From Candidatus Woesearchaeota archaeon (GTDB lineage: Archaea > Nanobdellota > Nanobdellia > Woesearchaeales > JAGVYF01): a DNA stretch of 64,000 nucleotides. The stretch is from NCBI GenBank assembly GCA_023264635.1, contig JAHFLT010000005.1, positions 4,582 through 68,581 of the forward strand, written 5' to 3'. The position numbers were made by a program, and so were the translations under genes. This document shows, in pieces, positions 1,094 to 56,919 of the stretch (positions within the stretch are counted from its first letter, which is position 1; each line of letters begins with the position of its first letter). The notes below the pieces were generated by a model. That model was not told the origin of the DNA and did no database searches. It was given only the letters and a program-made list of their open reading frames with translations.

Positions 1094-1144
1094 TCTATTT
1101 TTTTTGTCAATTACGTTTAAATAATCAAGAACCATGATAAAGCC

Positions 1145-1462
1145 ATGTTCAATATAGGTACAGACATTGTCTTTATTCCCAAGATAAAAAAGATTCTCAC
1201 AGATAGTTCATTCCTCAACAGAGTCTTTCATGAAGATGAACGCACACCGTTTACAGCTGAGCACCTTGCTGGCATTTACGCTGCAAAGGAAGCTTTTTTT
1301 AAAGCGCTTGGAAAGGATCCATCTTGGCTGTCTGTCCACATCAAAGGCAAAGCACCACAATGTGTTCTCACACCGCAGCTTGCGCAAAAAATAAAGCACA
1401 CAAGCCTCAGCATAAGCCATGATAAAGAATATGCTATTGCGCAGGTGCTCGTAGAGCTATGA
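1145..1462 (+). CDS. acpS: Holo-[acyl-carrier-protein] synthase (4'-phosphopantetheinyl transferase, AcpS type)
   Basis: IGTDIVFI near the N-terminus, AAKEAFFKALG, and a C-terminal ISISHDKEYAIAQV match the AcpS signature. Size is about 105 aa. Its stop overlaps the start of the next gene (ATGA). Confidence 0.75.
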   Translation: MFNIGTDIVFIPKIKKILTDSSFLNRVFHEDERTPFTAEHLAGIYAAKEAFFKALGKDPSWLSVHIKGKAPQCVLTPQLAQKIKHTSLSISHDKEYAIAQVLVEL

Positions 1463-3831
1463 ACACTATCTTAGAGTTGATTGATAGCCTGAAGGAGAAA
1501 GAAGGGATAGCATTAACTTCTTTCAATGGATATCGACATTTTCATTACACCTACCAAGAACTCTACGACCTTGCCAGTAGGACAGCAGCTTTACTTGATC
1601 ATATAGGTATCAACAAAAAAGATGTTGTACTCATCTGGGGACCTAACCAGCCGGAGTGGGTAGCTGCTTTTTTAGCATGCATCATCCGAGGTGCGATTGC
1701 TGTACCGATAGATGTGCATAACAAACCAGATTTTGTTGAGAAAGTGCAAAAGCAGACAAAAGCGAAGCTGCTCATTACCAATACACCGCTATCCCAAATC
1801 AAGTCACTGTCCTTGAATAATCTCTTTTATGCATTACAATTTCCACCATCCCAACCAAGAGAATGCTTTGAAAAAGATATTGTTGAAATACTATACACAT
1901 CTGGCACAACAGGAGAACCAAAGGGAGTTGCGTTGTCACACAAGAATTTCTGCGCAAGCCTTTTGGCATTGCAGATGCTCATCAAGCCAGAGAAGCACAC
2001 AGTTCTCTCTGTGCTACCATTGAGCCACATTTTCGAACAAGTTATTGGCCTTCTGTTGCCATTACAATTTGGAGCAAGAATTATTTATTTACCTTCTCTT
2101 AAACCATCCCTTTTGCTTGACAGTATCAGGAAAGAACGTGTAACCATTCTGTTATTGATGCCGCGTATGATGGAACTTTTGCTGGTAGAGTTGCAGTGTT
2201 CTCCACTCTATTCTTTTTATTCATTGACAAAAACAGGGAAGCTGTTGTTAGCGCCTTCACTGCACTTCATTGTGGTGGGCGGCGCTCCACTGGACAATGA
2301 ACTTGAGCGTGCATGGGAAAAACTTGGTTTCGAGGTTCTGCAAGGATATGGCATGACAGAAACAACCGCCTTACTAACCTGTTTATTGCCAGAAGTTCAT
2401 GTGCATAACTCTGTTGGCAAAGCAGTGCCAGGTGTTGAACTTAAAGTGGAGAACGATGAGATTGTAGTGCGGGGGGATAATGTCTTTACTGCATACTACC
2501 GGAACAAGCAAAAAACAAGCGCTGCATTTTCTAAGGGATGGTTTAAGACCGGTGACATGGGAGAATGTGACTCTGCAGGATTCATATACATCAAAGGACG
2601 AAAAAAAGATATGATAAAAACAAGCTCGGGCTTCACTATTTATCCTGAAGATATAGAAGCTGTGCTGAAAAAATGCAGTGGCGTAAGAGATGCATGTGTA
2701 ATTGGCATTCCAACACGCAAAGGAGAAAAAGTTCATGCAGTCCTCTTACTTGAAAATGGAAATCCTGAAGAGGTTATCGCAGAAGCAAACAAACAGCTTG
2801 ATGAGATACAAAAAATTACAGATTATTCACTTTGGCCAGATCGAGATTTTCCCCGAACTCCTCTGCAGAAGGTGAAGAAAAATGTCGTTCTTGGTATTGT
2901 TCTTGGTATAACACCAAAAAGAATTGCAAAGACTCAGAGGGAAAGACTTCCCCCGCTCAAAGCAACGATTGCCCAACTGACAACGAAAAATATCTTGCCA
3001 AATGCACAGTTGAGAGACCTTGATTTTTCCTCGTTGGATAGAGTTGAACTTGCAACACGGTTAGAGCAGGAGTTTCTTACTGATGTTGATGAGAACGAAC
3101 TGCGCCCAGAGACAACAGTAGCTGATGTTGAGAAATTAATTCTCAAAGGAATACGAGAGAGAGAGGTGCATGTACGCCGCTGGACGCGCTGGAGTATTAT
3201 ACGTCTCATCCGTGTTGTCATCCAGCACTTTTTGTATATTGTAACAGCACTCTTGTGTAGGCGTGTTGTGAAGGGAAGAGAAAATGTCTCTGGAATACGG
3301 GGTCCTGTGATTTTTATTGCAAATCATGCAAGCCATCTTGATACGCCTGTCCTTCTTATGAGCTTGCCATTTTCATTGCGTGAAAAAATTACACCAGCTG
3401 CATGGGAAGAATATTTTTTTGAGGAACGGAAAGAGTGGTACTGGAAAGTGTATCAGTTATTTGCCTATAATTTTACAACTATATTCTGGAATGCCTTCAT
3501 GTTCCCGCAGACAAAAGGTTTCCGTAAGGCATTGCGTTATGCAGGAGAATTAGTGGATGATGGATGGAGCATTCTTGTTTTCCCTGAAGGTGCACGCACG
3601 ACAACCGGCAAGTTGTTGCCATTCAAGGAAGGGATTGGATTTTTGGCAAAAGAGCTGAAGATACCAATTGTGCCGATAAAGCTTGAAGGATTATTGCCTA
3701 TTTTACCCAGAGGAAAAATTATCCCTTCACCAGGAAAAGTGATGGTGAAAATAGGAAAGCCATTATCATTCACCACCGAATCTGTTGTTGAGATAACTAA
3801 GTATATCGAAGATGCTCTAAAGAGGTTGTGA
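1459..3831 (+). CDS. Fusion protein: AMP-dependent acyl-ACP/CoA synthetase, internal phosphopantetheine carrier domain, and PlsC-type 1-acyl-glycerol-3-phosphate acyltransferase (Aas-like, with a different domain order)
   Basis: AMP-binding motifs YTSGTTGEPKG, GWFKTGDMG and YIKGRKKDMIKTSSGFTIYPEDIE. Carrier motif LDFSSLDRVEL. Acyltransferase motifs HX4D (FIANHASHLD) and FPEGARTT. Confidence 0.8.
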   Translation: MNTILELIDSLKEKEGIALTSFNGYRHFHYTYQELYDLASRTAALLDHIGINKKDVVLIWGPNQPEWVAAFLACIIRGAIAVPIDVHNKPDFVEKVQKQTKAKLLITNTPLSQIKSLSLNNLFYALQFPPSQPRECFEKDIVEILYTSGTTGEPKGVALSHKNFCASLLALQMLIKPEKHTVLSVLPLSHIFEQVIGLLLPLQFGARIIYLPSLKPSLLLDSIRKERVTILLLMPRMMELLLVELQCSPLYSFYSLTKTGKLLLAPSLHFIVVGGAPLDNELERAWEKLGFEVLQGYGMTETTALLTCLLPEVHVHNSVGKAVPGVELKVENDEIVVRGDNVFTAYYRNKQKTSAAFSKGWFKTGDMGECDSAGFIYIKGRKKDMIKTSSGFTIYPEDIEAVLKKCSGVRDACVIGIPTRKGEKVHAVLLLENGNPEEVIAEANKQLDEIQKITDYSLWPDRDFPRTPLQKVKKNVVLGIVLGITPKRIAKTQRERLPPLKATIAQLTTKNILPNAQLRDLDFSSLDRVELATRLEQEFLTDVDENELRPETTVADVEKLILKGIREREVHVRRWTRWSIIRLIRVVIQHFLYIVTALLCRRVVKGRENVSGIRGPVIFIANHASHLDTPVLLMSLPFSLREKITPAAWEEYFFEERKEWYWKVYQLFAYNFTTIFWNAFMFPQTKGFRKALRYAGELVDDGWSILVFPEGARTTTGKLLPFKEGIGFLAKELKIPIVPIKLEGLLPILPRGKIIPSPGKVMVKIGKPLSFTTESVVEITKYIEDALKRL

Positions 3832-4079
3832 AGAAGGAATGCCGTCTTCAGGTAAAAATTTATAACCTCACCATATCCACTACCATTATGCCCCTAATTA
3901 TGCACAAACGCATTTCCATCATTCCTTATCAGGACTATACTCCATGGGGATATCTCTTTGAAACCGTTGCTTTGCAGGAACATCTCTTTCCCACCCTAAG
4001 TAAGTATGATTCCACAACATCCTATATTCTGATGAAAGACAAACAAAGCCACTACTATGTCTATATCAGTTTTTTATAA
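3828..4079 (+). CDS. Hypothetical small ORF with a GTG start and low-complexity sequence; doubtful
   Basis: ORF track only. No recognisable motifs. Confidence 0.15.
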   Translation: MKKECRLQVKIYNLTISTTIMPLIMHKRISIIPYQDYTPWGYLFETVALQEHLFPTLSKYDSTTSYILMKDKQSHYYVYISFL

Positions 4080-4124
4080 GTTTATGGCGCCAGTTTTTTA
4101 TAGCATTGACTATTTGTATGGAGC

Positions 4125-4814
4125 ATGCATTGTACGGTTGTAGATCTTGGCATAATCCCCTTTAGAGAGGCATTGGCACTGCAGGAGAAAATGTGTGCAT
4201 TACGTGCAGAGAATAAAATAGAAGATCACCTTCTCCTGCTTGAACACGATCCCATCATCACACTCGGCAGGAAAGCAACTAAAGAGATGTTTCGTGTTTC
4301 ACCCATCGAGATTCGCAAAATGGGCATTGACGTTATTGAAATAGATCGCGGAGGAAACATCACCTACCATGGCCCAGGACAACTAGTAGGATACCCTATT
4401 TTGAATTTCAGCAGACTTGTAGAGGAACAACAACTTACTGTGGAGAAATATATGATCATTCTCCGACGAATGCTGCTTGCTGTTTTACGTGATTTTGACA
4501 TTGATGCATGGCAGGAAGATGGCGGTGTATGGGTTGCCGAAGGAATAAAAATCGGAGCGACAGGCATTGCAATTAAATCATTCCCTTCTATGAAAGTCAC
4601 CAAGCACGGCTTTGCATTAGATGTGAACACCAATTTAGCTCATTTTGCGACCATCGCACCATGCGGGTACCCTAATGCAGAAGCTATTTCAATGCAGAAG
4701 ATTCTCCAGAAGAAAATTGATATGACTTATATTAAACAAAGCATCATCAACATATTTGGAGATGCATTTGGACATAGTTTAGAAGTGGGGAACAGAAAAG
4801 ATATGTTTATATAA
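4125..4814 (+). CDS. lipB: Octanoyltransferase (lipoyl/octanoyl-protein ligase B)
   Basis: LLLEHDPIITLGRKA and RGGNITYHGPGQLVGYPIL are the conserved LipB core. About 229 aa. Confidence 0.75.
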   Translation: MHCTVVDLGIIPFREALALQEKMCALRAENKIEDHLLLLEHDPIITLGRKATKEMFRVSPIEIRKMGIDVIEIDRGGNITYHGPGQLVGYPILNFSRLVEEQQLTVEKYMIILRRMLLAVLRDFDIDAWQEDGGVWVAEGIKIGATGIAIKSFPSMKVTKHGFALDVNTNLAHFATIAPCGYPNAEAISMQKILQKKIDMTYIKQSIINIFGDAFGHSLEVGNRKDMFI

Positions 4815-4837: not shown

Positions 4838-5170
4838 ATGATTCTAACAGAAGAGAAATCAGCTTATTATGTTGCGGCTCGTAAAAAAGGTTCAGAAGAC
4901 TCCTTCCAGTTTGTCAAATATGAAAAACACGGCAGGTGTGCCGGTGGACTTTCTACCGAGTGGAGTGTTGGTTTTAGAGTCGGGAATTATGCCTGTTCTG
5001 AAGAGATAGCAAAGAAAGCGCAGGAAGAACTTGAAAAACGAGGGTTTGAAGTACAGATTATAAAACAGTACTGGCCTTCGGGACATATCGATCTTGATGG
5101 GATTATTTTTGCAGAAGGACTGGAAAAAATTGCGAAGAATATTATAAAGAAAAGCAAGCGGGAATTATAA
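4838..5170 (+). CDS. Hypothetical protein
   Basis: Clean 110-aa ORF with no recognisable family. Confidence 0.3.
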   Translation: MILTEEKSAYYVAARKKGSEDSFQFVKYEKHGRCAGGLSTEWSVGFRVGNYACSEEIAKKAQEELEKRGFEVQIIKQYWPSGHIDLDGIIFAEGLEKIAKNIIKKSKREL

Positions 5171-9581: not shown

Positions 9582-10973
9582 TTGGGACTTGTGGGGGAAG
9601 TGACAATACAAGACAAACTCCTGGGAGATAATGGTGTCTACGACCTAGTGAACCAAAACTTCTACTTGAATCGTGCACAAATCCAGCTAGGAGACAGATT
9701 CTTCGAGCCAGTAGCGTTTATCGGCATTCTCACTGCTCTTGTCGACGGCAAAGAATTACTGTATGGTCCGTATGGCAAAGGGAAGACAACTTCTTCAGAA
9801 GCGTTGGGAGCACTCCTCTATGGACTCCCCTTGGAATTCATGCAGGTAAGCCAACTTGATGGTCATCCAGAGCAGACAGAAGAGAAAATAAAGGCTATCA
9901 TTGATTTAGGCAAGCTCACTAAAGAAGGGATTGAGGAGGTCATCTGGCGGTTGTTCGTGTATACTCCTGCAAAAGTATGTGATGAAATTAATCGTCTTCC
10001 CGAAGGCAAGCAGAACATCTTGCTCAAAGGAATTGATAGAAATGTATGGACGTACCGAGATAGTACATTGACAGTGCCGCAAGGATGCTTTTACGGAACA
10101 TGCAATTATGCTGACAGGGGAAATACAGATCTCATCCCACCGTTGAAAGACAGATTTGACATCGCTGTAGAAGTGAGACGAGCAGACCCTATTCGCCGCG
10201 AACTCATTAGAAATGGCGTTGTGCGAGATGCATTCGAACAGCTGAAGGAGCCAGCACTGTATACGGAAATTTTCGCTATGCTGATGGACTCCAAACACAC
10301 AGCTGAAAAAAAACTGGAGTTGCTAGAACAGATGAGTCAAAAATTCAAGCAAGAACTCAGCAAGCGCTTCAGTTTGTCCCTTCCCACGAATGATGAACTA
10401 CGCACTGCTAAAAAAGAGTTATCTTCTCTTATCTTGGAGGATGAGGCGACCCTATTCATAGATTACCTTACCAGCGAGATGGAATTCTGTATCTACCATG
10501 ACAAGCCAGAGCATGCCACCTGCCAGAAATGCCATTGGAAAGATTTTCTTTGTTCAAGAATGGGGAAAATAGGAGGCAGACTTGAGCTTTCGGTGGTTAA
10601 GTATGCCCGTGCAACAGCGTGGTTATTAGGGGAAAAAAAAGTAACATTGGAACACGTCAAGATGATATACCCTTATGCGCTATGGCACCGTGCAGAGTTT
10701 CAGGATAATATTTTACAGGAGTATGTCAGCGAGCCGAGAGAAAGCACCTTAAAGCTCCACATCGCACGAAAGATCGTGGAAGAGAAGACACCCCATTTTA
10801 TCGAGACAAAGGACCTGCAGGCACGGAGCTATAATGCTGTTGTCAATAGCAACGCAAACGACCTTGAGAAGTCTCACTTTAAGCATGCTGTGTACGTGGA
10901 TTACGTCAGTGCATGGGACTCCAAAAAAGACAAGGACGCTGTTGAGCAACTGCTGAAAAAAATAAGGAAATGA
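9582..10973 (+). CDS. MoxR-like AAA+ ATPase (AAA_3/AAA_5 type) with a Cys-containing C-terminal extension
   Basis: Walker A LLYGPYGKGKTT. Walker B and sensor region VCDEINRLPEGKQNILLKGIDRN. NP-loop/arginine region TVPQGCFYGTCNYADRGNTDLIPPLKDRFDIAVEV. Non-ATG start (TTG or GTG around 9582-9600). TATA-like ctttatatag about 25-30 nt upstream. Confidence 0.65.
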   Translation: MGLVGEVTIQDKLLGDNGVYDLVNQNFYLNRAQIQLGDRFFEPVAFIGILTALVDGKELLYGPYGKGKTTSSEALGALLYGLPLEFMQVSQLDGHPEQTEEKIKAIIDLGKLTKEGIEEVIWRLFVYTPAKVCDEINRLPEGKQNILLKGIDRNVWTYRDSTLTVPQGCFYGTCNYADRGNTDLIPPLKDRFDIAVEVRRADPIRRELIRNGVVRDAFEQLKEPALYTEIFAMLMDSKHTAEKKLELLEQMSQKFKQELSKRFSLSLPTNDELRTAKKELSSLILEDEATLFIDYLTSEMEFCIYHDKPEHATCQKCHWKDFLCSRMGKIGGRLELSVVKYARATAWLLGEKKVTLEHVKMIYPYALWHRAEFQDNILQEYVSEPRESTLKLHIARKIVEEKTPHFIETKDLQARSYNAVVNSNANDLEKSHFKHAVYVDYVSAWDSKKDKDAVEQLLKKIRK

Positions 10974-11650
10974 CGCTTGACAAACTGATAAAAAAATATG
11001 GTTTGTGGTCAAAAGAAGTTGTAGCATCAAAAGAAAAGTATGTAATAAATGAACAGGCACCTACACCCTATCACCGCTTGCTGGAGCATATCCTTTATTT
11101 TACACCCGAACAACCATTCCCCGGGGTATTCAAGCACTCTTACGATTTATTAGTAAAGGAAGGACTCGAGCCATCACAAGATGATATCGAAGCATTCGCA
11201 AAGAGTTTCCTCGTTTATGAAGGATATGACCGTTTCTGGCGCCGTGCAGGGAAATTTCTCTCAGCCATGATCGCATTATGGGAAAATAACACACACACAA
11301 AAACGTTTATTCGGCTCGATTTCTCTGCTGCAAGTAAACCTGTAGACTATGCATGCATAAAACTAAATAACTGTTCTATTCAGATAGATGGGTCTGTGGG
11401 CTCTTACTGCGGCATGAACAGCAAGGAATGCAATATCCTTATCCAAAGCAATGCTGGTCAATCTCTTGGTTACAAAGCAGAGAAAACTCTTTTCAAAGTA
11501 TCTGGAGAGACGGGAACCGGACTTGGAGCGTATGCACATGCATGCTCATATTTTGTCCGTGGCACAATAGCGCAGATTTCACCGTATATTCTATCCAGTT
11601 GCGAGGTTTACAATAGTGGTGGCAGCGCGCACACAAAGGTGTTCCCATGA
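10970..11650 (+). CDS. Small protein with an N-terminal helical region and a C-terminal GXGXG-type beta-helix repeat; paralog 1 of 3
   Basis: N-terminus MTLDKLIKKYG. C-terminal IQIDGSVGSYCGMNSKECNILIQSNAGQSLGYKAEKTLFKVSGETGTGLGAYAHACSYFVRG fits the GXGXG beta-helix pattern of the glutamate synthase C-terminal domain and FwdC. Start overlaps the upstream stop. Confidence 0.5.
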   Translation: MTLDKLIKKYGLWSKEVVASKEKYVINEQAPTPYHRLLEHILYFTPEQPFPGVFKHSYDLLVKEGLEPSQDDIEAFAKSFLVYEGYDRFWRRAGKFLSAMIALWENNTHTKTFIRLDFSAASKPVDYACIKLNNCSIQIDGSVGSYCGMNSKECNILIQSNAGQSLGYKAEKTLFKVSGETGTGLGAYAHACSYFVRGTIAQISPYILSSCEVYNSGGSAHTKVFP

Positions 11651-14537: not shown

Positions 14538-15392
14538 ATGAGAACGTTGGCTCTTGCCGGAATGATACTGTTTGCACAATATGCAGAAGCAAAAGAGGCA
14601 GCCATCCTGTTTTCCTCCATGAGCGATGCCACATACGATGACCCGATAGACAGGAATGCAGTATGGCGAGGTACAGCGATGACCTATCAGTCAATCCGTA
14701 ACCTTGGCATTACCAGTGAAAATGTCATCATACTTTATAATGATGCAAAGCCAGACTATACAGATATAAGTATCCCTCTCCGAGCAGAAATCAGCAGCAA
14801 AACAATCTCAGAAGGCAAAGACAGCGAACTTGAAAAAGTATTCAGAGAGCAGACAAAAGATCTCACTGACCAGGATACTATCATCCTTTGTACATCAACA
14901 CATGGAGGAGATAATGGGATTCTGTACCCGAGTTATGGGAGACAAATTCCCGCAAAAAAAATGGGTGAGTTGCTCTCCACAACAAAAGCACGTGCTGTTG
15001 TGTTTTATCTCGCGTGTTATTCTGGCTCCATGCTTCAGTCTTCTTCAGCACCAAATACTGTTCAGGTGTCATGCGCAAACCATACACTCGCATGGATTGA
15101 CAGAAATTACAGCAGCAGCGCAGACTTCTTCAGGGCATTTAGTACGCCTAGTGCAGATCGTGATCATAATGGAAAGGTATCTATCGAAGAAGCTGCAGCG
15201 TATGCCCATAAAAATTGGGGTAAATACATGGACGGATTCCTTGAGAAGTATCTCCTCACTACCTACGTCTGGCCAAAGAACTTTTTTGGATATAACGATA
15301 AGGAAGAAGTCGTTGAAAAGATAGATTGTGATCCTCAGATAAAACGCGGACAGCTTATTCCTCTGGAGTGGACATTGGAGAAAAAACCATGA
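14538..15392 (+). CDS. Secreted legumain-like (C13 family) cysteine peptidase
   Basis: Signal peptide MRTLALAGMILFAQYAEA. Catalytic His in ILCTSTHGGDNG. Catalytic Cys in VFYLACYSGSMLQ (compare legumain VFYIEACESGSMM). Confidence 0.65.
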   Translation: MRTLALAGMILFAQYAEAKEAAILFSSMSDATYDDPIDRNAVWRGTAMTYQSIRNLGITSENVIILYNDAKPDYTDISIPLRAEISSKTISEGKDSELEKVFREQTKDLTDQDTIILCTSTHGGDNGILYPSYGRQIPAKKMGELLSTTKARAVVFYLACYSGSMLQSSSAPNTVQVSCANHTLAWIDRNYSSSADFFRAFSTPSADRDHNGKVSIEEAAAYAHKNWGKYMDGFLEKYLLTTYVWPKNFFGYNDKEEVVEKIDCDPQIKRGQLIPLEWTLEKKP

Positions 15393-25128: not shown

Positions 25129-25974
25129 ATGAGATCAGCGAGACAAGCCATCGGTGGCCAGGCAGTCATCGAGGGAGTCATGCTTCGTGGCTCTCGGTAT
25201 TGTGCTGTCGCTGTCCGCAAAGAAAACAAAATAGTGACAAAGGTGGATCCTGTCTCACCGCTCCGCCTGCAGAAAATCCCTGTCCTTAGAGGAGTGTTAG
25301 CACTGATAGACATGCTTATTTTAGGCATAAATACACTGCTCTGGAGCGCTGCACAGGCAGAAGGTGAAGAGCTGTCAAAAAAAGAAACAGCTACTCTATT
25401 CACAACGACCATCGCAATAGCAATCGTGTTTTTCATTGGGATTCCTTTGCTCATCACTCTCATGATATCACCATCACATGGGGTGTTGTTCAATCTTTTA
25501 GACGGCTCATTGCGCCTTGGCATATTCATTGGCTATGTGGGAATCATTTCGAGACTTGAGGACGTCAAAAAGTTATTTCGTTATCATGGCGCTGAACACA
25601 AGGTAGTAAATTGCTATGAGCAAGTGCACCATGTCACGGTGAATGCTGCCAAGAAATGTTCACCCATCCATCCACGCTGTGGAACCACTTTTGTCATGGT
25701 CATACTGTTGCTCAGTGTTGTGGTTCTTTCTATCATTAATCCAAGCACCTGGTTTGGCAAGTTTTTGGTGCGCATCATGATGTTCCCCATTATTGCGGGC
25801 ACTTCCTACGAAATAATCAAGCTCGCTGCCAACTTTAGGGAAAATATTCTACTTAAGGCAATCATTACTCCGGGGCTATGGTTCCAGACGATAACAACAG
25901 CAGAACCAACTGCAGAAGAACTAGAGGTTGCAGTTGCTGCATTGAATGCTTTGGTGGAGAAAGAAAATGCTTAG
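25129..25974 (+). CDS. DUF1385 (YqhQ-like) membrane-associated metal-dependent protein
   Basis: GGQAVIEGVMLRG, YHGAEHKVVNCYE, HPRCGTTF. Confidence 0.65.
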   Translation: MRSARQAIGGQAVIEGVMLRGSRYCAVAVRKENKIVTKVDPVSPLRLQKIPVLRGVLALIDMLILGINTLLWSAAQAEGEELSKKETATLFTTTIAIAIVFFIGIPLLITLMISPSHGVLFNLLDGSLRLGIFIGYVGIISRLEDVKKLFRYHGAEHKVVNCYEQVHHVTVNAAKKCSPIHPRCGTTFVMVILLLSVVVLSIINPSTWFGKFLVRIMMFPIIAGTSYEIIKLAANFRENILLKAIITPGLWFQTITTAEPTAEELEVAVAALNALVEKENA

Positions 25975-31897: not shown

Positions 31898-31949
31898 TTT
31901 TAAAGGTATGGCGAAATCTTTATAAACACGGCACTATGTTCAGGTACTT

Positions 31950-32060
31950 GGACGGTCATAGGGGCTTGGTTCACCCGATCCCATTCCGAACTCGGACGTT
32001 AAGCAAGCCTCCGTACCGGTAAGTACTTTACTCAGTAGGGGAAAGCTGGTAAGCTGTCCA
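31950..32060 (+). rRNA. rrf: 5S ribosomal RNA
   Basis: CACCCGATCCCATTCCGAACTCGGACGTTAAGC matches the universal 5S loop B/helix III/loop C core. Terminal helix I is ggacgg...ctgtcc. TATA-like tttataaa about 25 nt upstream. No 16S/23S adjacent. Confidence 0.75.
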
Positions 32061-32174
32061 CTCACATTCTCCCTTTACTACATTCTCCCGTAAGCATATT
32101 CTTCACTCAGCTATTCTTCCACAACTTACACAAAGATTAAATAATGCTGTGCACTGCCCGAGTAACACTTACCT

Positions 32175-33479
32175 ATGAAATCTATTGCAATTCTTGGAAC
32201 AGGATATGTTGGACTTGTTACAGGTACTTGTTTTGCGGATTTGGGCAATAAAGTGACGTGCATCGATATCATTGAGGAAAAAATAAGAATGCTTTGCCAG
32301 GGAAAGAGCCCAATTTATGAACCTGGTTTAGAAGAGCTTATTCTGAAGAATGTAAAACATGGTAAACTGTCATTTACAACAGATGCGGACCGAGCCATAA
32401 AAAACTCAGAGATTGTCTTTATCTGCCTCCCCACACCTTCTTTACCAGATGGACATTGTGACACGTCTTACGTCCTTGGAGCAGCAGAAACCATCGGTAA
32501 GGCAATAGACAACTACAAAATAATAGTCAATAAGTCTACTTGCCCACCAGGTACTGCGCGACAACTGGAAAATGAAATATGTAAGTATACTTCTCAGCTA
32601 TTCGCTGTAGCCACCAATCCCGAATTTCTGAAAGAAGGATCTGCTGTTATCGATTTTATGAAACCAGACAGAGTGGTCCTAGGTACAGAGAACCCATCTG
32701 TTGAAAAAATACTTCGGCAATTATATGAGGCAGTGACCATCAACGGGCATCCTATTACTGTTATGAAAAGAGAAAGTGCTGAAATGGTAAAGTATGCCAG
32801 CAATGCGCTCTTAGCGGTGAGAATATCTTTCATCAATGAGATAGCTGAAAGCTGTGAACATTGTGGAGCTGATATCAAAGAGGTTGTTGATGGTATGACA
32901 AGCGATCCACGGATAGGACCCCATTTCCTGCATGCTGGCCCAGGTTACGGTGGTTCATGTTTTCCAAAAGACACACTCGCACTGGTAGCATGCAGTAAAG
33001 ATATGGGTGTCTCTTCAAAGATTACTGAAGCTGCTTACATAGTAAACACTGAGCATAAGCTCTATGCCGCAAAAAAGATAGAAATATCTATTGCGGGTCT
33101 CGAAGGAAAAAAAATCGGTATATGGGGACTTGCATTCAAAGCAAACACGGATGACATACGTGAAAGCCCTGCATTGACAATAGTGCCTTATCTCATTGAA
33201 CGAGGGGCCCACATTCATGCTAATGATCCACAGGCTATGGAAAATGCCAAGAGATTTCTTTCGCCAACGGTTGCTTATCATACTAATCTATACGACGTCT
33301 GCAAAGGAAGCGATGTGCTCGTTTTGCTTACGGAATGGAATGATTACAAGGACCCCGACTTTGCGCTGATAAAGAAACTTATGAAAACACCTGCGATTGT
33401 TGATTTAAGAAATCTTTATTACCGTAAAAAAACAGATCTGCAATCACTTGGATTCCAGTATACAGGCATGGGAACATGA
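32175..33479 (+). CDS. ugd: UDP-glucose 6-dehydrogenase
   Basis: N-terminal IAILGTGYVGLVTGTCFADLGNKVTCID Rossmann, and catalytic GGSCFPKD. Confidence 0.85.
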   Translation: MKSIAILGTGYVGLVTGTCFADLGNKVTCIDIIEEKIRMLCQGKSPIYEPGLEELILKNVKHGKLSFTTDADRAIKNSEIVFICLPTPSLPDGHCDTSYVLGAAETIGKAIDNYKIIVNKSTCPPGTARQLENEICKYTSQLFAVATNPEFLKEGSAVIDFMKPDRVVLGTENPSVEKILRQLYEAVTINGHPITVMKRESAEMVKYASNALLAVRISFINEIAESCEHCGADIKEVVDGMTSDPRIGPHFLHAGPGYGGSCFPKDTLALVACSKDMGVSSKITEAAYIVNTEHKLYAAKKIEISIAGLEGKKIGIWGLAFKANTDDIRESPALTIVPYLIERGAHIHANDPQAMENAKRFLSPTVAYHTNLYDVCKGSDVLVLLTEWNDYKDPDFALIKKLMKTPAIVDLRNLYYRKKTDLQSLGFQYTGMGT

Positions 33480-34468
33480 AAGCAATAATTCCTCTTGCGG
33501 GTCTTGGGAAACGCCTTAGACCGCATACGCATACAAAACCAAAGCCCTTGGTGCATGTAGCAGGAAAACCTCTCCTGGGACATCTTCTTGATCAGCTTCT
33601 GCCATACAAAATAGAGGAATATGTTTTCGTCATCGGCTACTTAGGTGAACAAGTCAAAGAATACGTTCACCAGAATTATACCATCAATACAGCTTTTTAC
33701 GAACAGACAGAGTTGAATGGACAAGCAGGTGCTGTTTACCTTGCAAAGGAACGTGTCAAGAGAGATGCTCTTATCATATTTGGAGATACTCTTTTTGACC
33801 ATCGAGAGACGGGATTTGATGCATTGGAAAGCATAGTAGAAGATGGATTACTGTATGTGAAAGAAGTCGATGACCCGAGACGCTTCGGTGTCATTGTAAC
33901 AGATGAAAACGGAAGGGTAACACAGCTTGTGGAAAAACCAAAGAATCCCCCATCCAAATTGGTCAATGTTGGATTGTATTATATCAAACACATGGAAAAA
34001 CTATATGCCTCAATCGATCAGCTCATGGCGCGCCAGAACGAAGGGGAACTCTATCTCCTCGATGCTTTCGGAATTCTCCTTTCACAGGGTCTGCAGTTCA
34101 CAACAAGACCTATTAAAAGCTGGCTTGATTGTGGTACCCGCGAAAGCTTGTTAGAGACAAACAGGGTGCTTCTTTCAGAGAGAACACAAATGGATGGAGA
34201 GATGCAGAATAGCTGCATTATTCCACCAGTTTTTATAGATAAAGGTGCACGCATCATCCATTCTGTTATTGGACCATATGTTTCAGTGGGAAACAACGTA
34301 GAGATTGTAGACAGTAGAATTACAAATAGCATCATCAATCCCTATGCACGCGTCCACAAAACGATAATAGAAGACACAATCATCGGTGAGAGAGCATCTG
34401 TAATGCTAAATAGCTCTCAACTTGATGTTGGCGATGACTGTCAGATTGGATTTTATAAAGACATTTGA
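33476..34468 (+). CDS. Sugar-phosphate nucleotidyltransferase with a C-terminal left-handed beta-helix (GlmU/GMP-like)
   Basis: MKAIIPLAGLGKRLRPHTHTKPKPL, and C-terminal hexapeptide repeats. Confidence 0.7.
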   Translation: MKAIIPLAGLGKRLRPHTHTKPKPLVHVAGKPLLGHLLDQLLPYKIEEYVFVIGYLGEQVKEYVHQNYTINTAFYEQTELNGQAGAVYLAKERVKRDALIIFGDTLFDHRETGFDALESIVEDGLLYVKEVDDPRRFGVIVTDENGRVTQLVEKPKNPPSKLVNVGLYYIKHMEKLYASIDQLMARQNEGELYLLDAFGILLSQGLQFTTRPIKSWLDCGTRESLLETNRVLLSERTQMDGEMQNSCIIPPVFIDKGARIIHSVIGPYVSVGNNVEIVDSRITNSIINPYARVHKTIIEDTIIGERASVMLNSSQLDVGDDCQIGFYKDI

Positions 34469-35364
34469 ACGTCAGATTATCACTCATATATTCACGAGTG
34501 GTTTTTTGTGCTAAATATTTATATAGAATTTACACTATCAGCCGATTGATGAATAAAGAAAAACTTGTTTTATTCTACCAGCAGGGGTGGGAGTGTGAAT
34601 GGGCAGGAAAGTTGGACAAGAATTATTACCCGAGAACAAAGACCTATGAGAATAGGATGCTGGATACGCTTTCTTTCATTTATGAGAAGGAAGATTCGAC
34701 ATTCACCGTCCTAGATGTCGGATGCGGGATTGGGATATATTCATTTGCTCTCTTGTCACGATTCAAAAATGCACATGTCGTGGGAATAGATTTATCACAG
34801 AAACAGATAGATTTTATTAGCGAACAGGCAAAGAGATTCTCATTTAAAGACAGAGGTACATTTCTACAAGCAGATGCGGAAAATTTCTCGCTAAAGAGTA
34901 AATTTGATTACATCATCTGTACTGAACTGCTTGAACATCTGCCTGATCCCCGAAAGGCGCTAAAAAATATTCTCCTTCATGGACATAAAAGGACAAAATT
35001 CATCTTCTCGGTTCCACATATCTACGGTGCTGGAGCTTCGGGGTGGTTCTTTAGGCAATACCGCAAAGATAATGACTGGATTGAAACACAAAAAAAAGAG
35101 GACATAGACTTCTCGAAGCCATATTACGAGTTTTATCATCATGAGTATGTGCTAGAAGAAGCAAAAAAACTACTGGAAGAAAGTGGATTTGTTGTTGAAA
35201 AGGCAGTTTTCTGTAATTTTAATTTCAAAAACAGATACATTACCTATGCATATTCGCAAATTTCTACAAGAAGTATTGACATGCTCTTCAACCGATTGAC
35301 CAACAATAAGAGAGCATCACAGATTACGCTACTCTGTTCATCTGAAAAACCGGTGAATAGCTAA
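34465..35364 (+). CDS. Class I SAM-dependent methyltransferase
   Basis: VLDVGCGIGIYSF motif I. Likely start is MNKEKLV at about 34549. Confidence 0.65.
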   Translation: MNVRLSLIYSRVVFCAKYLYRIYTISRLMNKEKLVLFYQQGWECEWAGKLDKNYYPRTKTYENRMLDTLSFIYEKEDSTFTVLDVGCGIGIYSFALLSRFKNAHVVGIDLSQKQIDFISEQAKRFSFKDRGTFLQADAENFSLKSKFDYIICTELLEHLPDPRKALKNILLHGHKRTKFIFSVPHIYGAGASGWFFRQYRKDNDWIETQKKEDIDFSKPYYEFYHHEYVLEEAKKLLEESGFVVEKAVFCNFNFKNRYITYAYSQISTRSIDMLFNRLTNNKRASQITLLCSSEKPVNS

Positions 35365-36774
35365 CTCTTTGAAGAATGGTATCTCTGAGTTGAAGTATTT
35401 TGAAAAAAAGATTCCACAACTATAAAACATAATTGCGAGTGGAATCAAAATAATAAGAGGAACATGGCTTTGCAGAAGATAAATGAGTAACGCTGTAGCG
35501 ATGCTTGCAAGCAACGGTATTTTCAGCAAGGGGAAAAAATGGTGTGGATATCCGTCATTTGCCAGCATTCTGGCACTATAAAAATAAAACAATAGCTCAA
35601 CAAGACCTGCAACCATAGCTGCACCAAGCATACCTGTGGAAGCGATTAGAAACCAGTCGAGAACTAACGTGAGTATGCCCACCATTACCAGACCTCGTAT
35701 GAGTTTATACTCCTTATTCATTGCAATAAGAGCCAGTGAAGTCAGATAAGTGAGATACTGAAAAAATAATTTAATTCCCAGAACGGACAACACCAATGCT
35801 GCCATTGCATATGCAGCACCATAAACAACAGACAAAATGGTCTTGCTCAAGACAATAACCATAGCAGCTAAGATAATACCTGTCGCCAACAAGAATTTTG
35901 TGGAGAGCATATATGCTTTCTTCGCTTTTTCAGCTGATTCATGTTGTGAGAATATCGGGAGAATTACTAATGCATAAACTGAAGGGAGAATGGCAAATAA
36001 TGCTACTATAGTTGAGGCAGCACTATAAATTCCAACATCGGCATCCCCACGCAGATAGGATAACAGCGTCACATCAATTTTGACATAGAATAGACCAAAG
36101 AAGTAAAACAAGAATAGCGGAAACCCTTTATGAAGCATCGACCACATTATGGCCTTTGAAAATGCAACCGGTGGGTGGAAAAACCATAAAATTGTACTGC
36201 TATTGATGAGAGCACGAACCAAACCGGCAACCACATACGCAATTAGCAGATATAAGAAAGATTTGCCTTGCAGCAAAAAAACAATACCCATGCCAGAGAT
36301 AATCAGCTTTTCTATCACCATGCTAACTGACTCTATCCCGGCAAGATCAACCGTTACAAGGATGTTACGAAAAAACCATGAATAAGAATCCAGAATGCAG
36401 TAGATACTTGCAAGCACTACAGCATACACAATTTCAAGGGGATAATGAGAATATGACATTACCCCTATGATTACGGCTAAGACTAAGAAAGAGAAGATAA
36501 ATTTGACGAGGCAGACATTCCAAAACAGAGATGGCAACTCTTCCCGATTTCTTGCAATCTCCCGAGCAGCCAACACAGCAAGACCCATATCTGTAAAAGC
36601 ATAAAAGAGCAGTGGCAGCGCAAGCGCAAATGAATAGTGTCCAAAACCGGCAGTCCCCAGCATGCGCGCAGCAGCTATTCCAATGAAGAATAACAAAGCC
36701 TTACTGATTATTTCTCCGACTATCAATAAAGTGGTTTTCCTGGCAATATTTCTGACGACACTCATAAAATGCAC
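35338..36774 (-). CDS. Polysaccharide/oligosaccharide flippase (Wzx/MOP family)
   Basis: About 12-14 TM helices and an N-terminus typical of Wzx (KTTLLIVGEIISKALLFFIGIAAARMLG). Confidence 0.7.
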   Translation of the reverse strand: MHFMSVVRNIARKTTLLIVGEIISKALLFFIGIAAARMLGTAGFGHYSFALALPLLFYAFTDMGLAVLAAREIARNREELPSLFWNVCLVKFIFSFLVLAVIIGVMSYSHYPLEIVYAVVLASIYCILDSYSWFFRNILVTVDLAGIESVSMVIEKLIISGMGIVFLLQGKSFLYLLIAYVVAGLVRALINSSTILWFFHPPVAFSKAIMWSMLHKGFPLFLFYFFGLFYVKIDVTLLSYLRGDADVGIYSAASTIVALFAILPSVYALVILPIFSQHESAEKAKKAYMLSTKFLLATGIILAAMVIVLSKTILSVVYGAAYAMAALVLSVLGIKLFFQYLTYLTSLALIAMNKEYKLIRGLVMVGILTLVLDWFLIASTGMLGAAMVAGLVELLFYFYSARMLANDGYPHHFFPLLKIPLLASIATALLIYLLQSHVPLIILIPLAIMFYSCGIFFSKYFNSEIPFFKELAIHRFFR

Positions 36775-36848
36775 AAACTTTTTATACCATTTAAAGTTTT
36801 GTGCAGTTTTGTGCTTTTCTTAGAGATGATTGAGAAAAGGAGATAATT

Positions 36849-36995
36849 GGGGCTACATCCGAAAAAGCGCTCAGCAGCTTAAGGTCGAGGCTTAGCAGTA
36901 GCCCATTTTGCGCTGACAAAGGGTAACATCCGGGAAATGCAAAGAAGCCATAGGCTTCTTGCACAAGGAGAAACGCTGTTCTCCTTTGTGTCAGC
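36849..36995. ncRNA. Candidate structured non-coding RNA: nested strong stems in a 400-bp non-coding gap
   Basis: Stem ggggctac(36849)...gtagccc(36903). Stem gcgctgacaaagg(36910)...cctttgtgtcagc(36995) encloses the hairpins gcaaagaagcc-ata-ggcttcttgc and ggagaa-acgctg-ttctcc. No ORF. Strand unknown. Confidence 0.3.
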
Positions 36996-37181
36996 TATCA
37001 CTTAGAAATACAAAGGCGGGAAGTTACTGAGCCGAATGAGAGCGAGAATTTTTGGATGGAGGCGATAGTTGAGAAAGTATTAAAAATAGATGGTTATTCT
37101 GGACATATCTGAATGTAACTGGGGTGTCTGTGGCGATTCTTCACTGCAATTTGATTGTTGTTCTCATAGCCACATATTTTT

Positions 37182-38318
37182 ATGAACGATAATGAACAAC
37201 AAATTACAGTAGCACATCTACAAGAAACGTATGTTTATCCTTTGTACGAATGGATTTATTACCAGACTATTTTAGTTCCAAATGTTAAAAGTTTAGTTAT
37301 AACACCTCTTGCTGTCAATCTTGAAAAGTATAATCATGCTGAAACGTTTGGGATTAATGAATTATCATCTCCCCGCAAGCAGTGGGAACTTTTTTCTTAT
37401 TTTTATCTTCACAGACCGTGGTATTTTAAGCAGGTAATTAATGCAAAAAAGGTAGATATTATTCATGCACAGTTTGGTAATGTGGGAAGAAGAGCATTAT
37501 GGCTTGCAAAAAAAACTGGAGCAAAATTAATTGTTAGTTTTTATGGTGTTGACCTTGCTTATTTTCCTAATAAAAATCATACTTTCTATAATGAACTGTT
37601 TCAAGCTGTGACATACATTATCGCATTAAGTATTGACATGAAACAAGTTTTAATAAGATTAGGATGTCCGGAAGAGAAAATAAAAATTGTACATGTTGGT
37701 ATTGATTGTAATAAGTTTTCTTATAAAAAACGTCCCTTACATAAACCATTTAGATTTATTTGTCTTGCTAGGTTTATAATGAAAAAAGGAGTTCCTTATA
37801 CTGTCCTTGCTATGGCAAAAGTAGTAAAAAAGTATCCAAACACACAACTTCATCTAGTTGGCGATGGACCGTTATTGCCAACAATAAAAAGGTACATCAA
37901 AGAGTATAATTTACAAAACAATGTGACTATTATAGATAACATCAATACAAGAAATCCCAGAGAAATAGCAGTTCAGGAATTATATAATGCTCATGCCCTG
38001 ATTCTTTTCAGCACACAATGTATTGATGACTATTCTGCAACACCACTTGTTGTGATAGAAGCACAGGCAAGTGGCATTCCGGTCATTACAAGCGATGACC
38101 CTGCTGTTGCCGAAGCAGTGAATCCGAAATACAGTTTTATTGTGCAACAAAAGAATGTCAATCAACTAGCTGAAAAGATGTTATACATTATTGAAAATCA
38201 GCAGGTAGTAGAAAAATACGGTAAAGCAGGCAGAAAACATGTCTTGCAAAATTTCAATTTTTCAAAAATAGGAGAACAATTATCTGAAATTTATCATGAG
38301 GTAGCACTATGCAGGTAA
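37182..38318 (+). CDS. Glycosyltransferase family 1 (GT4-like)
   Basis: EAQASGIPVITSD matches the E-x7-E region. About 378 aa. Confidence 0.75.
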   Translation: MNDNEQQITVAHLQETYVYPLYEWIYYQTILVPNVKSLVITPLAVNLEKYNHAETFGINELSSPRKQWELFSYFYLHRPWYFKQVINAKKVDIIHAQFGNVGRRALWLAKKTGAKLIVSFYGVDLAYFPNKNHTFYNELFQAVTYIIALSIDMKQVLIRLGCPEEKIKIVHVGIDCNKFSYKKRPLHKPFRFICLARFIMKKGVPYTVLAMAKVVKKYPNTQLHLVGDGPLLPTIKRYIKEYNLQNNVTIIDNINTRNPREIAVQELYNAHALILFSTQCIDDYSATPLVVIEAQASGIPVITSDDPAVAEAVNPKYSFIVQQKNVNQLAEKMLYIIENQQVVEKYGKAGRKHVLQNFNFSKIGEQLSEIYHEVALCR

Positions 38319-39121
38319 TTATCTTATGCGGCGGAAAAGGAACCCGATTACGGGAAGAAACAGAAAATAAACCTAAACCCCTTGTAGAGGTTGGGGGCAA
38401 ACCCATCCTTTGGCACATTATGAAAATTTATTCTCACTACGGTTTCAATGATTTTGTCCTTTGTCTCGGCTACAAGGGGGATATGATTAAAGACTACTTT
38501 GTGAATCATAGTTCCTCTGAAAGTGATTTTACTTTTGACTCAAAGACAAAGGAATGCCTCTCCCATGGACCTAATAGCATTGAAAATTGGACTATTACTT
38601 TTGCAAATACTGGTCAGGAAACATTGACTGCAGCCAGAATAAAACAAGTAGAAAAGTACATCACAGAAGATACTTTTCATGTAACGTATGGAGATGTCAT
38701 TGCAGACATAGATATCTCTGCTCTTGTCCGGCAGCATAACGAAGTAGGTACTATCGGAGTGATGACTGGTATACATGGACGCTTAAAACGCGAAACCATC
38801 AAAGCGAAAGGCTCGATTATTACTGAATTTAAACAAGAACTAGAGATAGATGATATTGTCAACGGGGGATTCATGGTATTCAAAAAAGAATTCTTCACTT
38901 ATCTAACAAAAAATTGTATGTTAGAAGAAACTCTTTCTGACTTGGTAAAGGATAGACAGCTGGGTCTTTATTATCACGGTGGATTCTGGGAGAATATGAA
39001 TACTTATCAGGAGGTTGAGAAGTTGAATAAATTGTGTGAAGCAGGTACACCCCCATGGTATATTTGGGAAAAAGGAAAGAAAATGAATTGTCCAACCGCA
39101 GAAGAGTTGGAGGATACTTAA
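38309..39121 (+). CDS. rfbF: Glucose-1-phosphate cytidylyltransferase
   Basis: MQVIILCGGKGTRLREETENKPKPLVEVGGKPILWHIMKIYSHYGFNDFVLCLGYKGDMIKDYF is the RfbF signature. Confidence 0.8.
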   Translation: MQVIILCGGKGTRLREETENKPKPLVEVGGKPILWHIMKIYSHYGFNDFVLCLGYKGDMIKDYFVNHSSSESDFTFDSKTKECLSHGPNSIENWTITFANTGQETLTAARIKQVEKYITEDTFHVTYGDVIADIDISALVRQHNEVGTIGVMTGIHGRLKRETIKAKGSIITEFKQELEIDDIVNGGFMVFKKEFFTYLTKNCMLEETLSDLVKDRQLGLYYHGGFWENMNTYQEVEKLNKLCEAGTPPWYIWEKGKKMNCPTAEELEDT

Positions 39122-54644: not shown

Positions 54645-55166
54645 ATGAATATATTTAGGGTGATAATGCTAATTGGACTCATTAGTTTTAGTGTGGATCA
54701 GCAACTTGTGTCTCTCATTTTGGCAGCTCATAACCCCTTACTAGACTCGTTCTTCCTGCTTATTACGAGAACAGAGACGAGCATAGCGGCGTTATTGATA
54801 CTCTCCTTTGTCATCTATCGAAAACAGAGCATCATACCTTTATGGTGTGCATGCGGTATGTCCACTGCAGTAGTATACTTGCTAAAGGTTTTCATTATGA
54901 GACCCAGACCATTTATGATAATGGCTTTTGCTCCGCTTATTATCGAAACTACCAGTTCGTTCCCGAGCAATCATGCAGCTTTGGTCTTTACGGCACTTCC
55001 ATTCCTCCCAGAGAAACGTTATTGGTTAGCTTTTGCATTGTTTGTCGCATTGAGCAGGGTGTATGTTGGTGTGCATTACCCTACTGATGTCATATTCGGC
55101 AGTCTCCTTGGCTACGGAGTCGGATGGTTTGTACATGAGAGGTGGCATCAATGGTATCACCGTTAG
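54645..55166 (+). CDS. PAP2-family (type 2 phosphatidic acid / polyprenyl-PP) phosphatase
   Basis: KxxxxxxRP (MRPRPF), PSNHA, and SRVYVGVHYPTDV. Confidence 0.7.
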   Translation: MNIFRVIMLIGLISFSVDQQLVSLILAAHNPLLDSFFLLITRTETSIAALLILSFVIYRKQSIIPLWCACGMSTAVVYLLKVFIMRPRPFMIMAFAPLIIETTSSFPSNHAALVFTALPFLPEKRYWLAFALFVALSRVYVGVHYPTDVIFGSLLGYGVGWFVHERWHQWYHR

Positions 55167-56574: not shown

Positions 56575-56919
56575 ATGAAGAACTATGAATTGATAAATGA
56601 ATTGAAGAATAAGCCAATATACCAAAGAGATGAAGATAAGACACCTGTAACATACATGATGCCTATAATTGTCATGTACGTCCCAATCACGGACTTGCCA
56701 GATAGCATGTACGGCCAGAGCTTACATAACAATGGGCTTTTTGGTGGCAAGACCCATTATCAGATTAATTATCAGATGATGGATAAAAACAACCCCTACA
56801 TTACGAAAACAGCTGATGGGGAATATGTTTCCACTCTCTTCGAAGAACTTGGAAAGACGTATGCTATTCGCCAAGCAGTTCCTGCCGAGCAGAAAGAAGC
56901 CCACCGTCAAGAGGTTTAG
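56575..56919 (+). CDS. Hypothetical protein
   Basis: ORF only. Confidence 0.3.
   Translation: MKNYELINELKNKPIYQRDEDKTPVTYMMPIIVMYVPITDLPDSMYGQSLHNNGLFGGKTHYQINYQMMDKNNPYITKTADGEYVSTLFEELGKTYAIRQAVPAEQKEAHRQEV

Follow-up and report, generated by a model that had tools for sequence, protein, structure and literature searches.

To our knowledge, archaea are partly defined by the absence of fatty-acyl ester membrane lipids and of fatty-acid chemistry based on an acyl carrier protein (ACP); own lipid synthesis is, as far as we know, generally beyond the DPANN archaea. What, then, is the function of three bacterial-type genes of acyl-carrier metabolism that lie close together, on one strand, in a contig of a Candidatus Woesearchaeota archaeon? 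The window analyzed here (64,000 nucleotides of contig JAHFLT010000005.1) encodes an AcpS-type 4'-phosphopantetheinyl transferase (PPTase), a 790-residue protein joining an acyl-AMP ligase, an ACP-like carrier and a PlsC-type acyltransferase (hereafter the fusion), and a LipB octanoyltransferase. An initial annotation had proposed these three bacterial-type enzymes in an archaeal contig. The three open reading frames (ORFs) were all recovered in place, with the motifs first read in them, and their Pfam domains were confirmed. The archaeal setting was confirmed as well by genes for ribosomal proteins S3Ae and S8e, an archaeal LonB, SRP54, an aIF-2B-family protein and PolX, and relatives of the locus bear the NCBI label 'Candidatus Woesearchaeota archaeon'. 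GC content is uniform across the locus, at 0.42, and that of the fusion gene is the same as the window's.

The answer that we consider probable is that AcpS and the fusion constitute a self-contained, bacterial-derived unit of acyl activation and acyl transfer, engaged in lipid salvage or reacylation. Among the functions put forward at the outset, reacylation or salvage of lipids is also the best supported.

The AcpS gene and the three-domain protein

The AcpS of the window has the motifs, and probably the family fold, of bacterial AcpS (group I PPTases), the motifs being G5-T6-D7 (within IGTDIV), K48-E49-A50 (AAKEAF) and S89-I90-S91-H92 (ISISHD). Pfam hits were scored against curated cut-offs, which all the domain hits named in this study exceed; for the ACPS family, the score is 40.9 bits (cut-off 25; 2.3e-10). 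AcpS also passes NCBIfam TIGR00556 (60.8; cut-off 45.35). It is short, however (105 residues), and remains under the cut-off of the acpS equivalog TIGR00516 (49.1 against 59.8). Its stop codon overlaps the start codon of the fusion by 4 nt (ATGA), in agreement with the coupling of the two genes that was initially claimed. A TATA-box-like element, TTTAAATA, precedes AcpS, and the motif search found no TATA box directly 5' of the fusion, which fits a single leaderless bicistronic transcript. As a consensus match, of which TTTAWATA has 21 in the window (both strands), TTTAAATA is a candidate promoter for such a transcript and not a proof of it.

The association of the two genes extends beyond this contig. 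Each of the six distinct archaeal loci (the window, L002, L004, L088, L089 and L091) has an AcpS gene directly upstream of the fusion and in the same orientation, and four of them keep the ATGA overlap. By comparison, an adjacent AcpS was found in 2 of the 48 metagenome loci that have enough upstream sequence (Fisher p about 1e-6 against six out of six); most of these 48 loci are high-GC and probably bacterial, taxonomy not having been set locus by locus, and one of the two, L141, is bacterial. No adjacent AcpS is present in the Geomonas and Omnitrophota loci. Archaea are generally without ACP and AcpS (PMC10332631). The simplest reading is thus that in archaea the PPTase must stay with the gene that depends on it, whereas in bacteria the carrier is served by the housekeeping AcpS. 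The client of AcpS is likely to be the internal carrier domain of the fusion rather than an ACP of fatty-acid synthase (FAS). Within the 64 kb, a Pfam search of the window ORFs (the remaining ones concatenated with X-linkers) gave no gene for a stand-alone ACP, fab enzymes, LipA, GcvH or lipoyl domains, and tblastn of the window with E. coli ACP and E. coli GcvH and with the major facilitator superfamily (MFS) proteins discussed below gave no match. Such a dependence on AcpS would offer a clean natural example of a horizontally moved enzyme bringing its activating enzyme along.

The N-terminal module of the fusion belongs to the adenylating enzymes of the ANL superfamily (fatty-acyl-AMP or acyl-carrier ligases). 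Pfam AMP-binding covers residues 21-347 (246 bits, 5e-73) and AMP-binding_C residues 399-467 (32.6 bits). Upon alignment of 36 full-length archaeal and bacterial homologs, the motifs T147SGTTGxPKG156 (T147SGTTGEPKG156 in the window), Y297-G298-x-x-E301 and T364-G365-D366 were found to be invariant, as was the A10 lysine K471, which falls just past the module as delimited in Table 1. The best match in the Protein Data Bank is FadD13 (3r44, 5e-43). In the ACP-like carrier that follows, the phosphopantetheine-attachment residue is Ser525 (codon 3031-3033), within DLDFS-S-LDRVEL; this is the conserved Ser that acyl carrier domains have in a (D/L)S(L/I) motif where helix II begins. The initial annotation had staked the carrier assignment on conservation of this serine. 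It is invariant in the 36 homologs, as in a separate alignment of 8 homologs, and the assignment stands. A profile built from the C-terminal 310 residues matched FAS-type ACPs in this region (E. coli 1L0I, about 3e-8) and not the carriers of non-ribosomal peptide synthetases.

The acyltransferase domain is of the PlsC/LPLAT type. It contains both expected motifs, H623-ASHL-D628 (HX4D; 3325-3342, in NHASHLD) and F708-P-E-G711 (3580-3591, in FPEGARTT), and N622, H623, D628, P709, E710 and G711 are invariant in the 36 homologs. With the same C-terminal profile, the closest solved structure is that of T. maritima PlsC (5KYM, 5e-21). The likeness to PlsC thus lies in the two motifs and in this best structural match; the difference is that the transferase of the fusion sits behind a ligase and a carrier, from which the donor would be delivered in cis.

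A confident alignment-based AlphaFold (AF2) model of the fusion (mean predicted local distance difference test, pLDDT, 84.8; predicted template-modelling score, pTM, 0.81) shows a helix, 525-539, that begins exactly at Ser525, and a linker, 486-495, with pLDDT below 50. Two helices, 574-577 and 579-599 (the RWTRWSIIRLIRVVIQHFLYIVTALL region), precede the transferase core. This segment is probably a membrane-interface anchor, to judge from its sequence and from the structure of T. maritima PlsC, in which a hydrophobic or amphipathic helix presumably also stands ahead of the catalytic core. In a Foldseek search with the model, MatB and FadD13 were matched at a template-modelling (TM) score of 0.85 (target-normalised), along with ANL ligases and didomain structures of an adenylation domain and a peptidyl carrier protein; the ligase domain dominates the matches of the whole model, and the search gave no information on the acyltransferase.

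Table 1. Coordinates of the AcpS-fusion-LipB locus within the window
Feature	Coordinates	Strand	Length or residues	Basis or position
TATA-box-like element TTTAAATA, candidate promoter	1116..1123	+		motif search; 29 nt 5' of AcpS ATG
AcpS-type 4'-phosphopantetheinyl transferase	1145..1462	+	105 aa	Pfam ACPS, TIGR00556, motifs
Tri-domain protein (acyl-AMP ligase, ACP-like carrier, PlsC-type acyltransferase)	1459..3831	+	790 aa	
ANL-superfamily adenylating (fatty-acyl-AMP / acyl-carrier ligase) module	1519..2859	+	residues 21-467	Pfam
ACP-like carrier domain	2965..3138	+	residues 503-560	Pfam PP-binding, 25.7 bits (cut-off 20.8)
Amphipathic/hydrophobic helix RWTRWSIIRLIRVVIQHFLYIVTALL	3178..3255	+	residues 574-599	in front of acyltransferase core
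PlsC/LPLAT-type acyltransferase domain	3265..3681	+	residues 603-741	Pfam PF01553, 66.4 bits, 3e-18
TATA-like box (TTTATAA) of the 63-aa ORF	about 3859-3866	+		at about -29/-28
Protein of unassigned function between fusion and LipB	3888..4079	+	63 aa	conserved in L002 and L091
TATA-box-like element TTTTTATA	4095..4102	+		motif search, consensus match only; 30 nt 5' of LipB ATG
LipB octanoyl (lipoyl) transferase	4125..4814	+	229 aa	Pfam, TIGR00214, 2QHS alignment
TATA-like box of the 110-aa ORF	about 4806-4813	+		motif search
110-aa ORF	4838-5170	+	110 aa	24 bp 3' of LipB

Relation to ElbD and Aas, and the proposed function

Full-length homologs having the same three Pfam domains are abundant, at 38-60% identity, under labels including Woesearchaeota, Pacearchaeota, Omnitrophota, Geobacter/Geomonas, Desulfuromonadales and Desulfobulbaceae. 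A metagenome scan with a C-terminal alignment of four sequences, which retrieved mainly high-GC, probably bacterial, soil loci, added 80 further loci, nearly all of them tri-domain where full length. No pattern could be derived from a C-terminal alignment of eight sequences, because these were too divergent. A contig scan by full-length alignment used the generic TSGTTGxPKG pattern, and among the matches listed were mostly ordinary acyl-CoA ligases, the genome of the window not being one of them. The architecture, first taken to be unusual, is therefore that of a large family, found widely among DPANN archaea and in several phyla of bacteria, and on record as ElbD-like proteins that have no reductase domain (PMC9131029).

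ElbD of Myxococcus xanthus (Q1DC43; Lorenzen et al., 2014, reviewed in PMC9131029) carries an extra N-terminal reductase, followed by acyl-activating, ACP and acyltransferase domains (A-ACP-AT); acyl-activating (ACS) and ACP activity have been demonstrated for it in vitro. Almost all homologues from other phyla, most of these anaerobic or extremophilic, are without the reductase (FAR1) domain (PMC9131029). The fusion resembles ElbD in having, on one polypeptide, the order acyl-activating (ACS/A), ACP and AGPAT/PlsC-like acyltransferase, a likeness at the level of the described domain order. It differs from ElbD in that the N-terminal reductase is missing (AMP-binding starts at residue 21, and there is no NAD_binding_4 match), in its archaeal host and in the AcpS gene joined to the operon. 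In the literature searched, we found no description of archaeal members, nor of the two-gene unit AcpS-(A-ACP-AT) that is seen so consistently here in DPANN archaea.

The E. coli enzyme Aas (2-acylglycerophosphoethanolamine acyltransferase / acyl-ACP synthetase; sequence from NC_000913.3) also unites ligase and PlsC-type modules in one protein. In blastp, residues 144-479 of the fusion align with the ligase of Aas (370-698; 25% identity, 2e-27) and residues 599-744 with its acyltransferase (9-139; 27% identity, 1e-10). The modules are thus swapped, as the initial annotation had held: Aas has its transferase first and its ligase last and uses a free holo-ACP in trans, whereas the fusion has the reversed order, with a PP-binding domain between the modules. 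The fusion also stays far under the corresponding NCBIfam equivalogs (181.7 against 1221 bits for NF006386; 161.8 against 1349 for NF005291). In Aas, a two-step mechanism is established, in which the acyl chain is loaded onto the phosphopantetheine carrier and then passed, via acyl-ACP, to the lysolipid (PMC11416262). Taking these comparisons together, the fusion would best be classed as an acyl-carrier ligase/acyltransferase that is Aas-like and also ElbD-like, but without the reductase.

The analysis shows domains with intact catalytic residues, their homology, the coupling of the genes and the statistics of synteny; from these we infer which substrates are used (chain length and acceptor lipid), which way the acyl groups flow and that the physiological role is salvage or remodelling of lipids, as follows. 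AcpS, made from the same transcript and probably translationally coupled, would turn Ser525 of the internal carrier into the holo (phosphopantetheinyl) form. The N-terminal ANL ligase would then adenylate a free, probably scavenged, fatty acid and load it on the carrier as a thioester. On the mobile carrier, the acyl chain would reach the PlsC-type acyltransferase, which forms the C-terminus and would sit at the membrane surface, and there be esterified onto a lyso-glycerolipid or lysophosphatidic acid. The net outcome would be Aas chemistry performed in cis, within the A-ACP-AT layout of ElbD-like proteins without a reductase.

Gene neighbours of the fusion in relatives suggest, in keeping with this scheme, salvage or remodelling of glycerophospholipid acyl chains, or phosphatidate synthesis from exogenous fatty acids. 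In L098 (607-4733), a low-GC (0.36) metagenome contig, a serine hydrolase, AcpS, the fusion and a patatin-like phospholipase follow each other on one strand, in what looks like a compact lipid-remodelling operon. In the bacterial contig L141 (3467-10935; GC 0.63), a divergent AcpS and an alpha/beta hydrolase lie upstream, and a methyltransferase and CdsA (CTP_transf_1) downstream. In some relatives an MFS transporter gene is paired with the fusion, as LplT is with Aas: one family abuts it in the Geomonas-type loci L006, L107 and L117, and a second, unrelated to the first, in the Omnitrophota locus L007 and in the clearly archaeal L088 (MFS-AcpS-fusion). The L007 and L088 transporters share 28% identity along 371 residues (E 2e-47). 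The possibility that these partners are LplT orthologs was rejected: none has an NCBIfam LplT match, and blastp with E. coli LplT gave a weak match of 111 residues for the Geomonas protein (27% identity, E about 2e-5), with no significant match for those of Omnitrophota and L088. The DEAD-box helicase, RmuC and unknown proteins of about 450 residues conserved near bacterial homologs carry no functional information. A PAP2-UbiA pair is found near the fusion in the Woesearchaeota locus L004.

It should be noted that several observations weigh against a role in lipid salvage. Demonstrated activities belong to ElbD, the chemistry of reductase-less members being predicted, and even with purified ElbD, acyltransferase activity could not be shown (PMC9131029). 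The ligase resembles acyl-CoA ligases (FadD13, NF004837), so that coenzyme A (CoA) is possible as an alternative acceptor. Unlike the Aas-LplT pair, the window fusion has no MFS gene adjoining it, and there is none in the window; the partner transporters of its relatives are not LplT. Its surroundings (nitroreductase, AcpS, 63-residue ORF, LipB, aminotransferase) include no lipid-context neighbour other than LipB. Since the archaeal loci are mutually related, the count of six out of six for an adjacent AcpS overstates their independence. Last, a role for ester-linked fatty acids is hard to explain in an archaeon expected to have ether isoprenoid lipids.

Acyltransferases of family PF01553 use many different acceptors. 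The transferase of the fusion could thus act on something other than a phospholipid (an amino-lipid, in the manner of OlsA, or a glycolipid, protein or polysaccharide), or the whole unit could be a decaying, horizontally acquired passenger; both the varied, mostly uninformative archaeal contexts and the failure of the fusion to reach any NCBIfam equivalog cut-off leave room for this. Decay is nevertheless excluded by the intact frame, the invariant catalytic residues and the 40-60% identity across many DPANN lineages, and the fusion has the GC content of its surroundings. As to the acceptor, the closest solved relative is a true PlsC, and CdsA and patatin, among the neighbours in relatives, are phospholipid-related. 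We therefore regard this alternative, as a whole, as improbable.

Still less credit is given to an ElbD-like role, in which the carrier-bound acyl group would be handed to a separate reductase or tailoring enzyme for the synthesis of ether or specialised lipids, as in the myxobacterial elb pathway. Beyond the shared A-ACP-AT order (PMC9131029), this is supported by split ElbD variants having the reductase as a separate ORF (preprint 10.64898/2026.06.23.733905) and by an NAD-dependent epimerase/dehydratase (ElbE/ElbA-like) upstream of the fusion in some bacterial loci, such as L139, which neighbour-clusters with L111 and L152. However, the likeness to ElbD is one of domain order, and in the six archaeal loci, window included, no reductase (FAR / NAD_binding_4), ElbB (HAD) or ElbE-like gene lies beside the fusion. 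In the window, none of the elb-cluster neighbours (the HAD phosphohydrolase gene elbB, elbC, or the NAD-dependent epimerase/dehydratase gene elbE) is present next to it, the nearest upstream gene being that of the divergent nitroreductase.

LipB and the small gene that precedes it

By its equivalog score and conserved residues, the third ORF is a true LipB. It scores 118.8 bits with LplA-B_cat and 124.4 with the lipB equivalog TIGR00214 (cut-off 83.55), and in the alignment with T. thermophilus LipB (2QHS, 5e-37) the R75-G-G77 loop, K142 (KIGATG) and C180 (PCG) are matched. The Cys, Lys and RGG residues of bacterial LipB are thus kept, in an archaeon that has no ACP gene in the 64 kb. The protein belongs to a tight clade of about seven sequences (64-77% identity), one of them labelled Woesearchaeota, beyond which the next-best matches are bacterial (42-46% identity). 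In archaea, LipB is known, though rare (PMC3904984, PMC10332631), and wherever it occurred LipA and E2 were present too (PMC3904984). Tanabe et al. considered LipB and LipA unexpected in archaea, as ACP is absent, and suggested CoA or coenzyme M as donors; the octanoyl donor of archaeal LipB is a stated open problem (PMC10332631).

Could the fusion provide this donor? The ligase would load octanoate on the built-in carrier and LipB would move the octanoyl group to lipoyl domains, AcpS, fusion and LipB then being one system, as the initial annotation had also suggested. The idea is chemically possible, since it is chiefly the acyl-phosphopantetheine arm that E. coli LipB recognises, and non-cognate ACPs can serve it as octanoate donors (PMC9307952), and it would answer the open question of the donor. 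In its favour, LipB is intact and strongly conserved (77% identity with its L002 ortholog, against 58% between the fusion and its L002 relative), and three genomes of one small clade carry AcpS-fusion and LipB on the same strand, the gap being 0.3 kb in the window, 1.3 kb in L002 and 6.8 kb in L091, where the flanking genes differ. Further downstream, however, the window and L002 have the aminotransferase-GDH-ZIP-IF-2B genes in common, so that the adjacency in these two may be inherited synteny.

A gene of 59-63 codons always separates fusion and LipB in these three genomes. In the window, the distance between the two genes, initially put at some 300 bp, is indeed close to that (293 bp), and the gap is not empty. 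By tblastn, the 63-residue ORF has counterparts in L002 (11455-11634; 42% identity, 5e-13) and L091 (7951-8136; 34% identity, 4e-9), and the gene calls of an ENA assembly include it. Neither NCBIfam nor the precomputed Pfam domains gave a match for it, and only 4 relatives were found among 1.8 billion representatives. One relative, of 1822 residues, matches it in 20 separate stretches, so that the small ORF may be one copy of a repeat unit. That this conserved gene accompanies the cluster may be counted in favour of a common function. In L002, the fusion is further separated from the small ORF by a gene of 328 residues without Pfam match (10436-11422), to which nothing in the window corresponds.

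The putative transcription signals point the other way. TATA-like boxes are found 28-32 nt before the ATGs of AcpS, the 63-residue ORF, LipB and the 110-residue ORF, an arrangement suggesting that the transcripts are leaderless and that adjacent genes have separate promoters. Two T6 runs, at 4070-4075 and 4094-4099, are possible terminators, the second being overlapped by TTTTTATA. With its own TATA-like box after the T-runs, LipB is probably transcribed on its own. For the 110-residue ORF that follows it, neither Pfam nor NCBIfam gave a match, and it is conserved in neither the L002 nor the L091 locus.

Comparative data argue in the same direction. LipB is missing near AcpS-fusion in L004, L088 and L089, and near the fusion in all 80 metagenome loci; conversely, in one further contig of the LipB clade the 2.4 kb upstream contain no fusion gene, the other contigs of the clade being short and uninformative. 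The bacterial LipBs nearest to that of the window are from Acidobacteria and Chloroflexi, whereas the nearest bacterial relatives of the fusion are from Omnitrophota and Desulfuromonadales, which suggests separate acquisitions. Within the 64 kb, LipB is accompanied by no gene for LipA (or LipS1/S2), GcvH or a lipoyl domain, and the genes called in the L002 and L091 loci likewise include none for LipA (or LipS1/S2) or a lipoyl acceptor. Moreover, E. coli LipB uses octanoyl-CoA efficiently (PMC9307952), and a carrier is thus not required for LipB. Finally, delivery of octanoate to LipB would leave the acyltransferase domain without a role. Supply of LipB by the carrier therefore appears very improbable as the function of the locus, and LipB is most likely a real octanoyltransferase but a separately transcribed neighbour, outside the AcpS-fusion unit. 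The adjacency, although the present link is weak, offers a cheap in vitro handle on the octanoate donor puzzle in ACP-less archaea.

Origin of the unit and its genomic surroundings

The fusion family is broad in bacteria, and its archaeal members were seen here only in DPANN-type loci. In a neighbour-joining tree (without support values and indicative only), most archaeal fusions fall into one cluster, inside which the clade of the window is nested, and the nearest bacterial groups to this cluster are Desulfuromonadales and Omnitrophota. A bacterial origin of AcpS-fusion is likely, as was initially proposed. With a fully ameliorated composition, and 40-60% identity between archaeal members, any transfer would be old within DPANN and not recent. 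PlsC homologs in DPANN were reported as bacterial acquisitions (PMC6431249), and the bacterial-type lipid genes described in Woesearchaeota comprise the methylerythritol phosphate pathway, glycerol-3-phosphate dehydrogenase, FabG/I/Z and cyclopropane-fatty-acid synthase (PMC8204110, PMC10936187). Bacterial lipid genes in such archaea were thus already on record, and, the architecture of the fusion being known and widespread too, the locus is less novel than first supposed.

How would a salvage unit serve its host? It is conceivable, though we would rather bet against it, that DPANN archaea of the Woesearchaeota/Pacearchaeota type use AcpS and the A-ACP-AT protein to build ester-linked or hybrid ether/ester membrane glycerolipids of their own from scavenged fatty acids or lysolipids. 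In the clade of the window, the holo-carrier might in addition be the octanoyl donor that archaeal LipB is missing. None of the present results contradicts the membrane-lipid proposal itself; it is consistent with the bacterial lipid genes of Woesearchaeota (PMC8204110, PMC10936187), and it fits the use by PlsC of both glycerol-phosphate stereoisomers, as reportedly observed (PMC13400652). If true, it would mean a working bacterial membrane chemistry inside archaea and would bear directly on the 'lipid divide'. An intact module with its own PPTase, present across many Woesearchaeota and Pacearchaeota, is in any event a concrete, expressible candidate for salvage or remodelling of the lipids of neighbours, and it would permit a direct test for bacterial-type or hybrid lipids in these archaea.

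Elsewhere in the window, other genes may be related to lipids or to the cell surface. A PAP2 lipid-phosphate phosphatase is followed by an overlapping gene for a polytopic membrane protein of 198 residues without Pfam match (54645-55735, +); the two may be a lipid-metabolism pair. An alpha/beta-hydrolase (Hydrolase_4; 60509-61231, -) has an N-terminal LLLLLLAGC that resembles a bacterial lipoprotein lipobox, and its gene adjoins that of a DUF599 membrane protein (61231-61869). A sugar-nucleotide/polysaccharide cluster (32175-39121) encodes UDP-glucose dehydrogenase, two nucleotidyltransferases, a methyltransferase matching the CMAS family, a flippase and a GT4 glycosyltransferase, at a GC content of 0.37-0.39 against 0.42 elsewhere. 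Two proteins (56864-58018, -, and 62074-63417, -) combine an N-terminal GT2 glycosyltransferase domain with C-terminal TPR repeats. No tRNA gene was found in the 64 kb. A DUF1385 protein (245 bits; 25129-25974, +) and a legumain-like Peptidase_C13 protein (14538-15392, +) are also encoded, and the window contains a solitary 5S rRNA gene (31948-32062, +; 70 bits), without 16S or 23S nearby.

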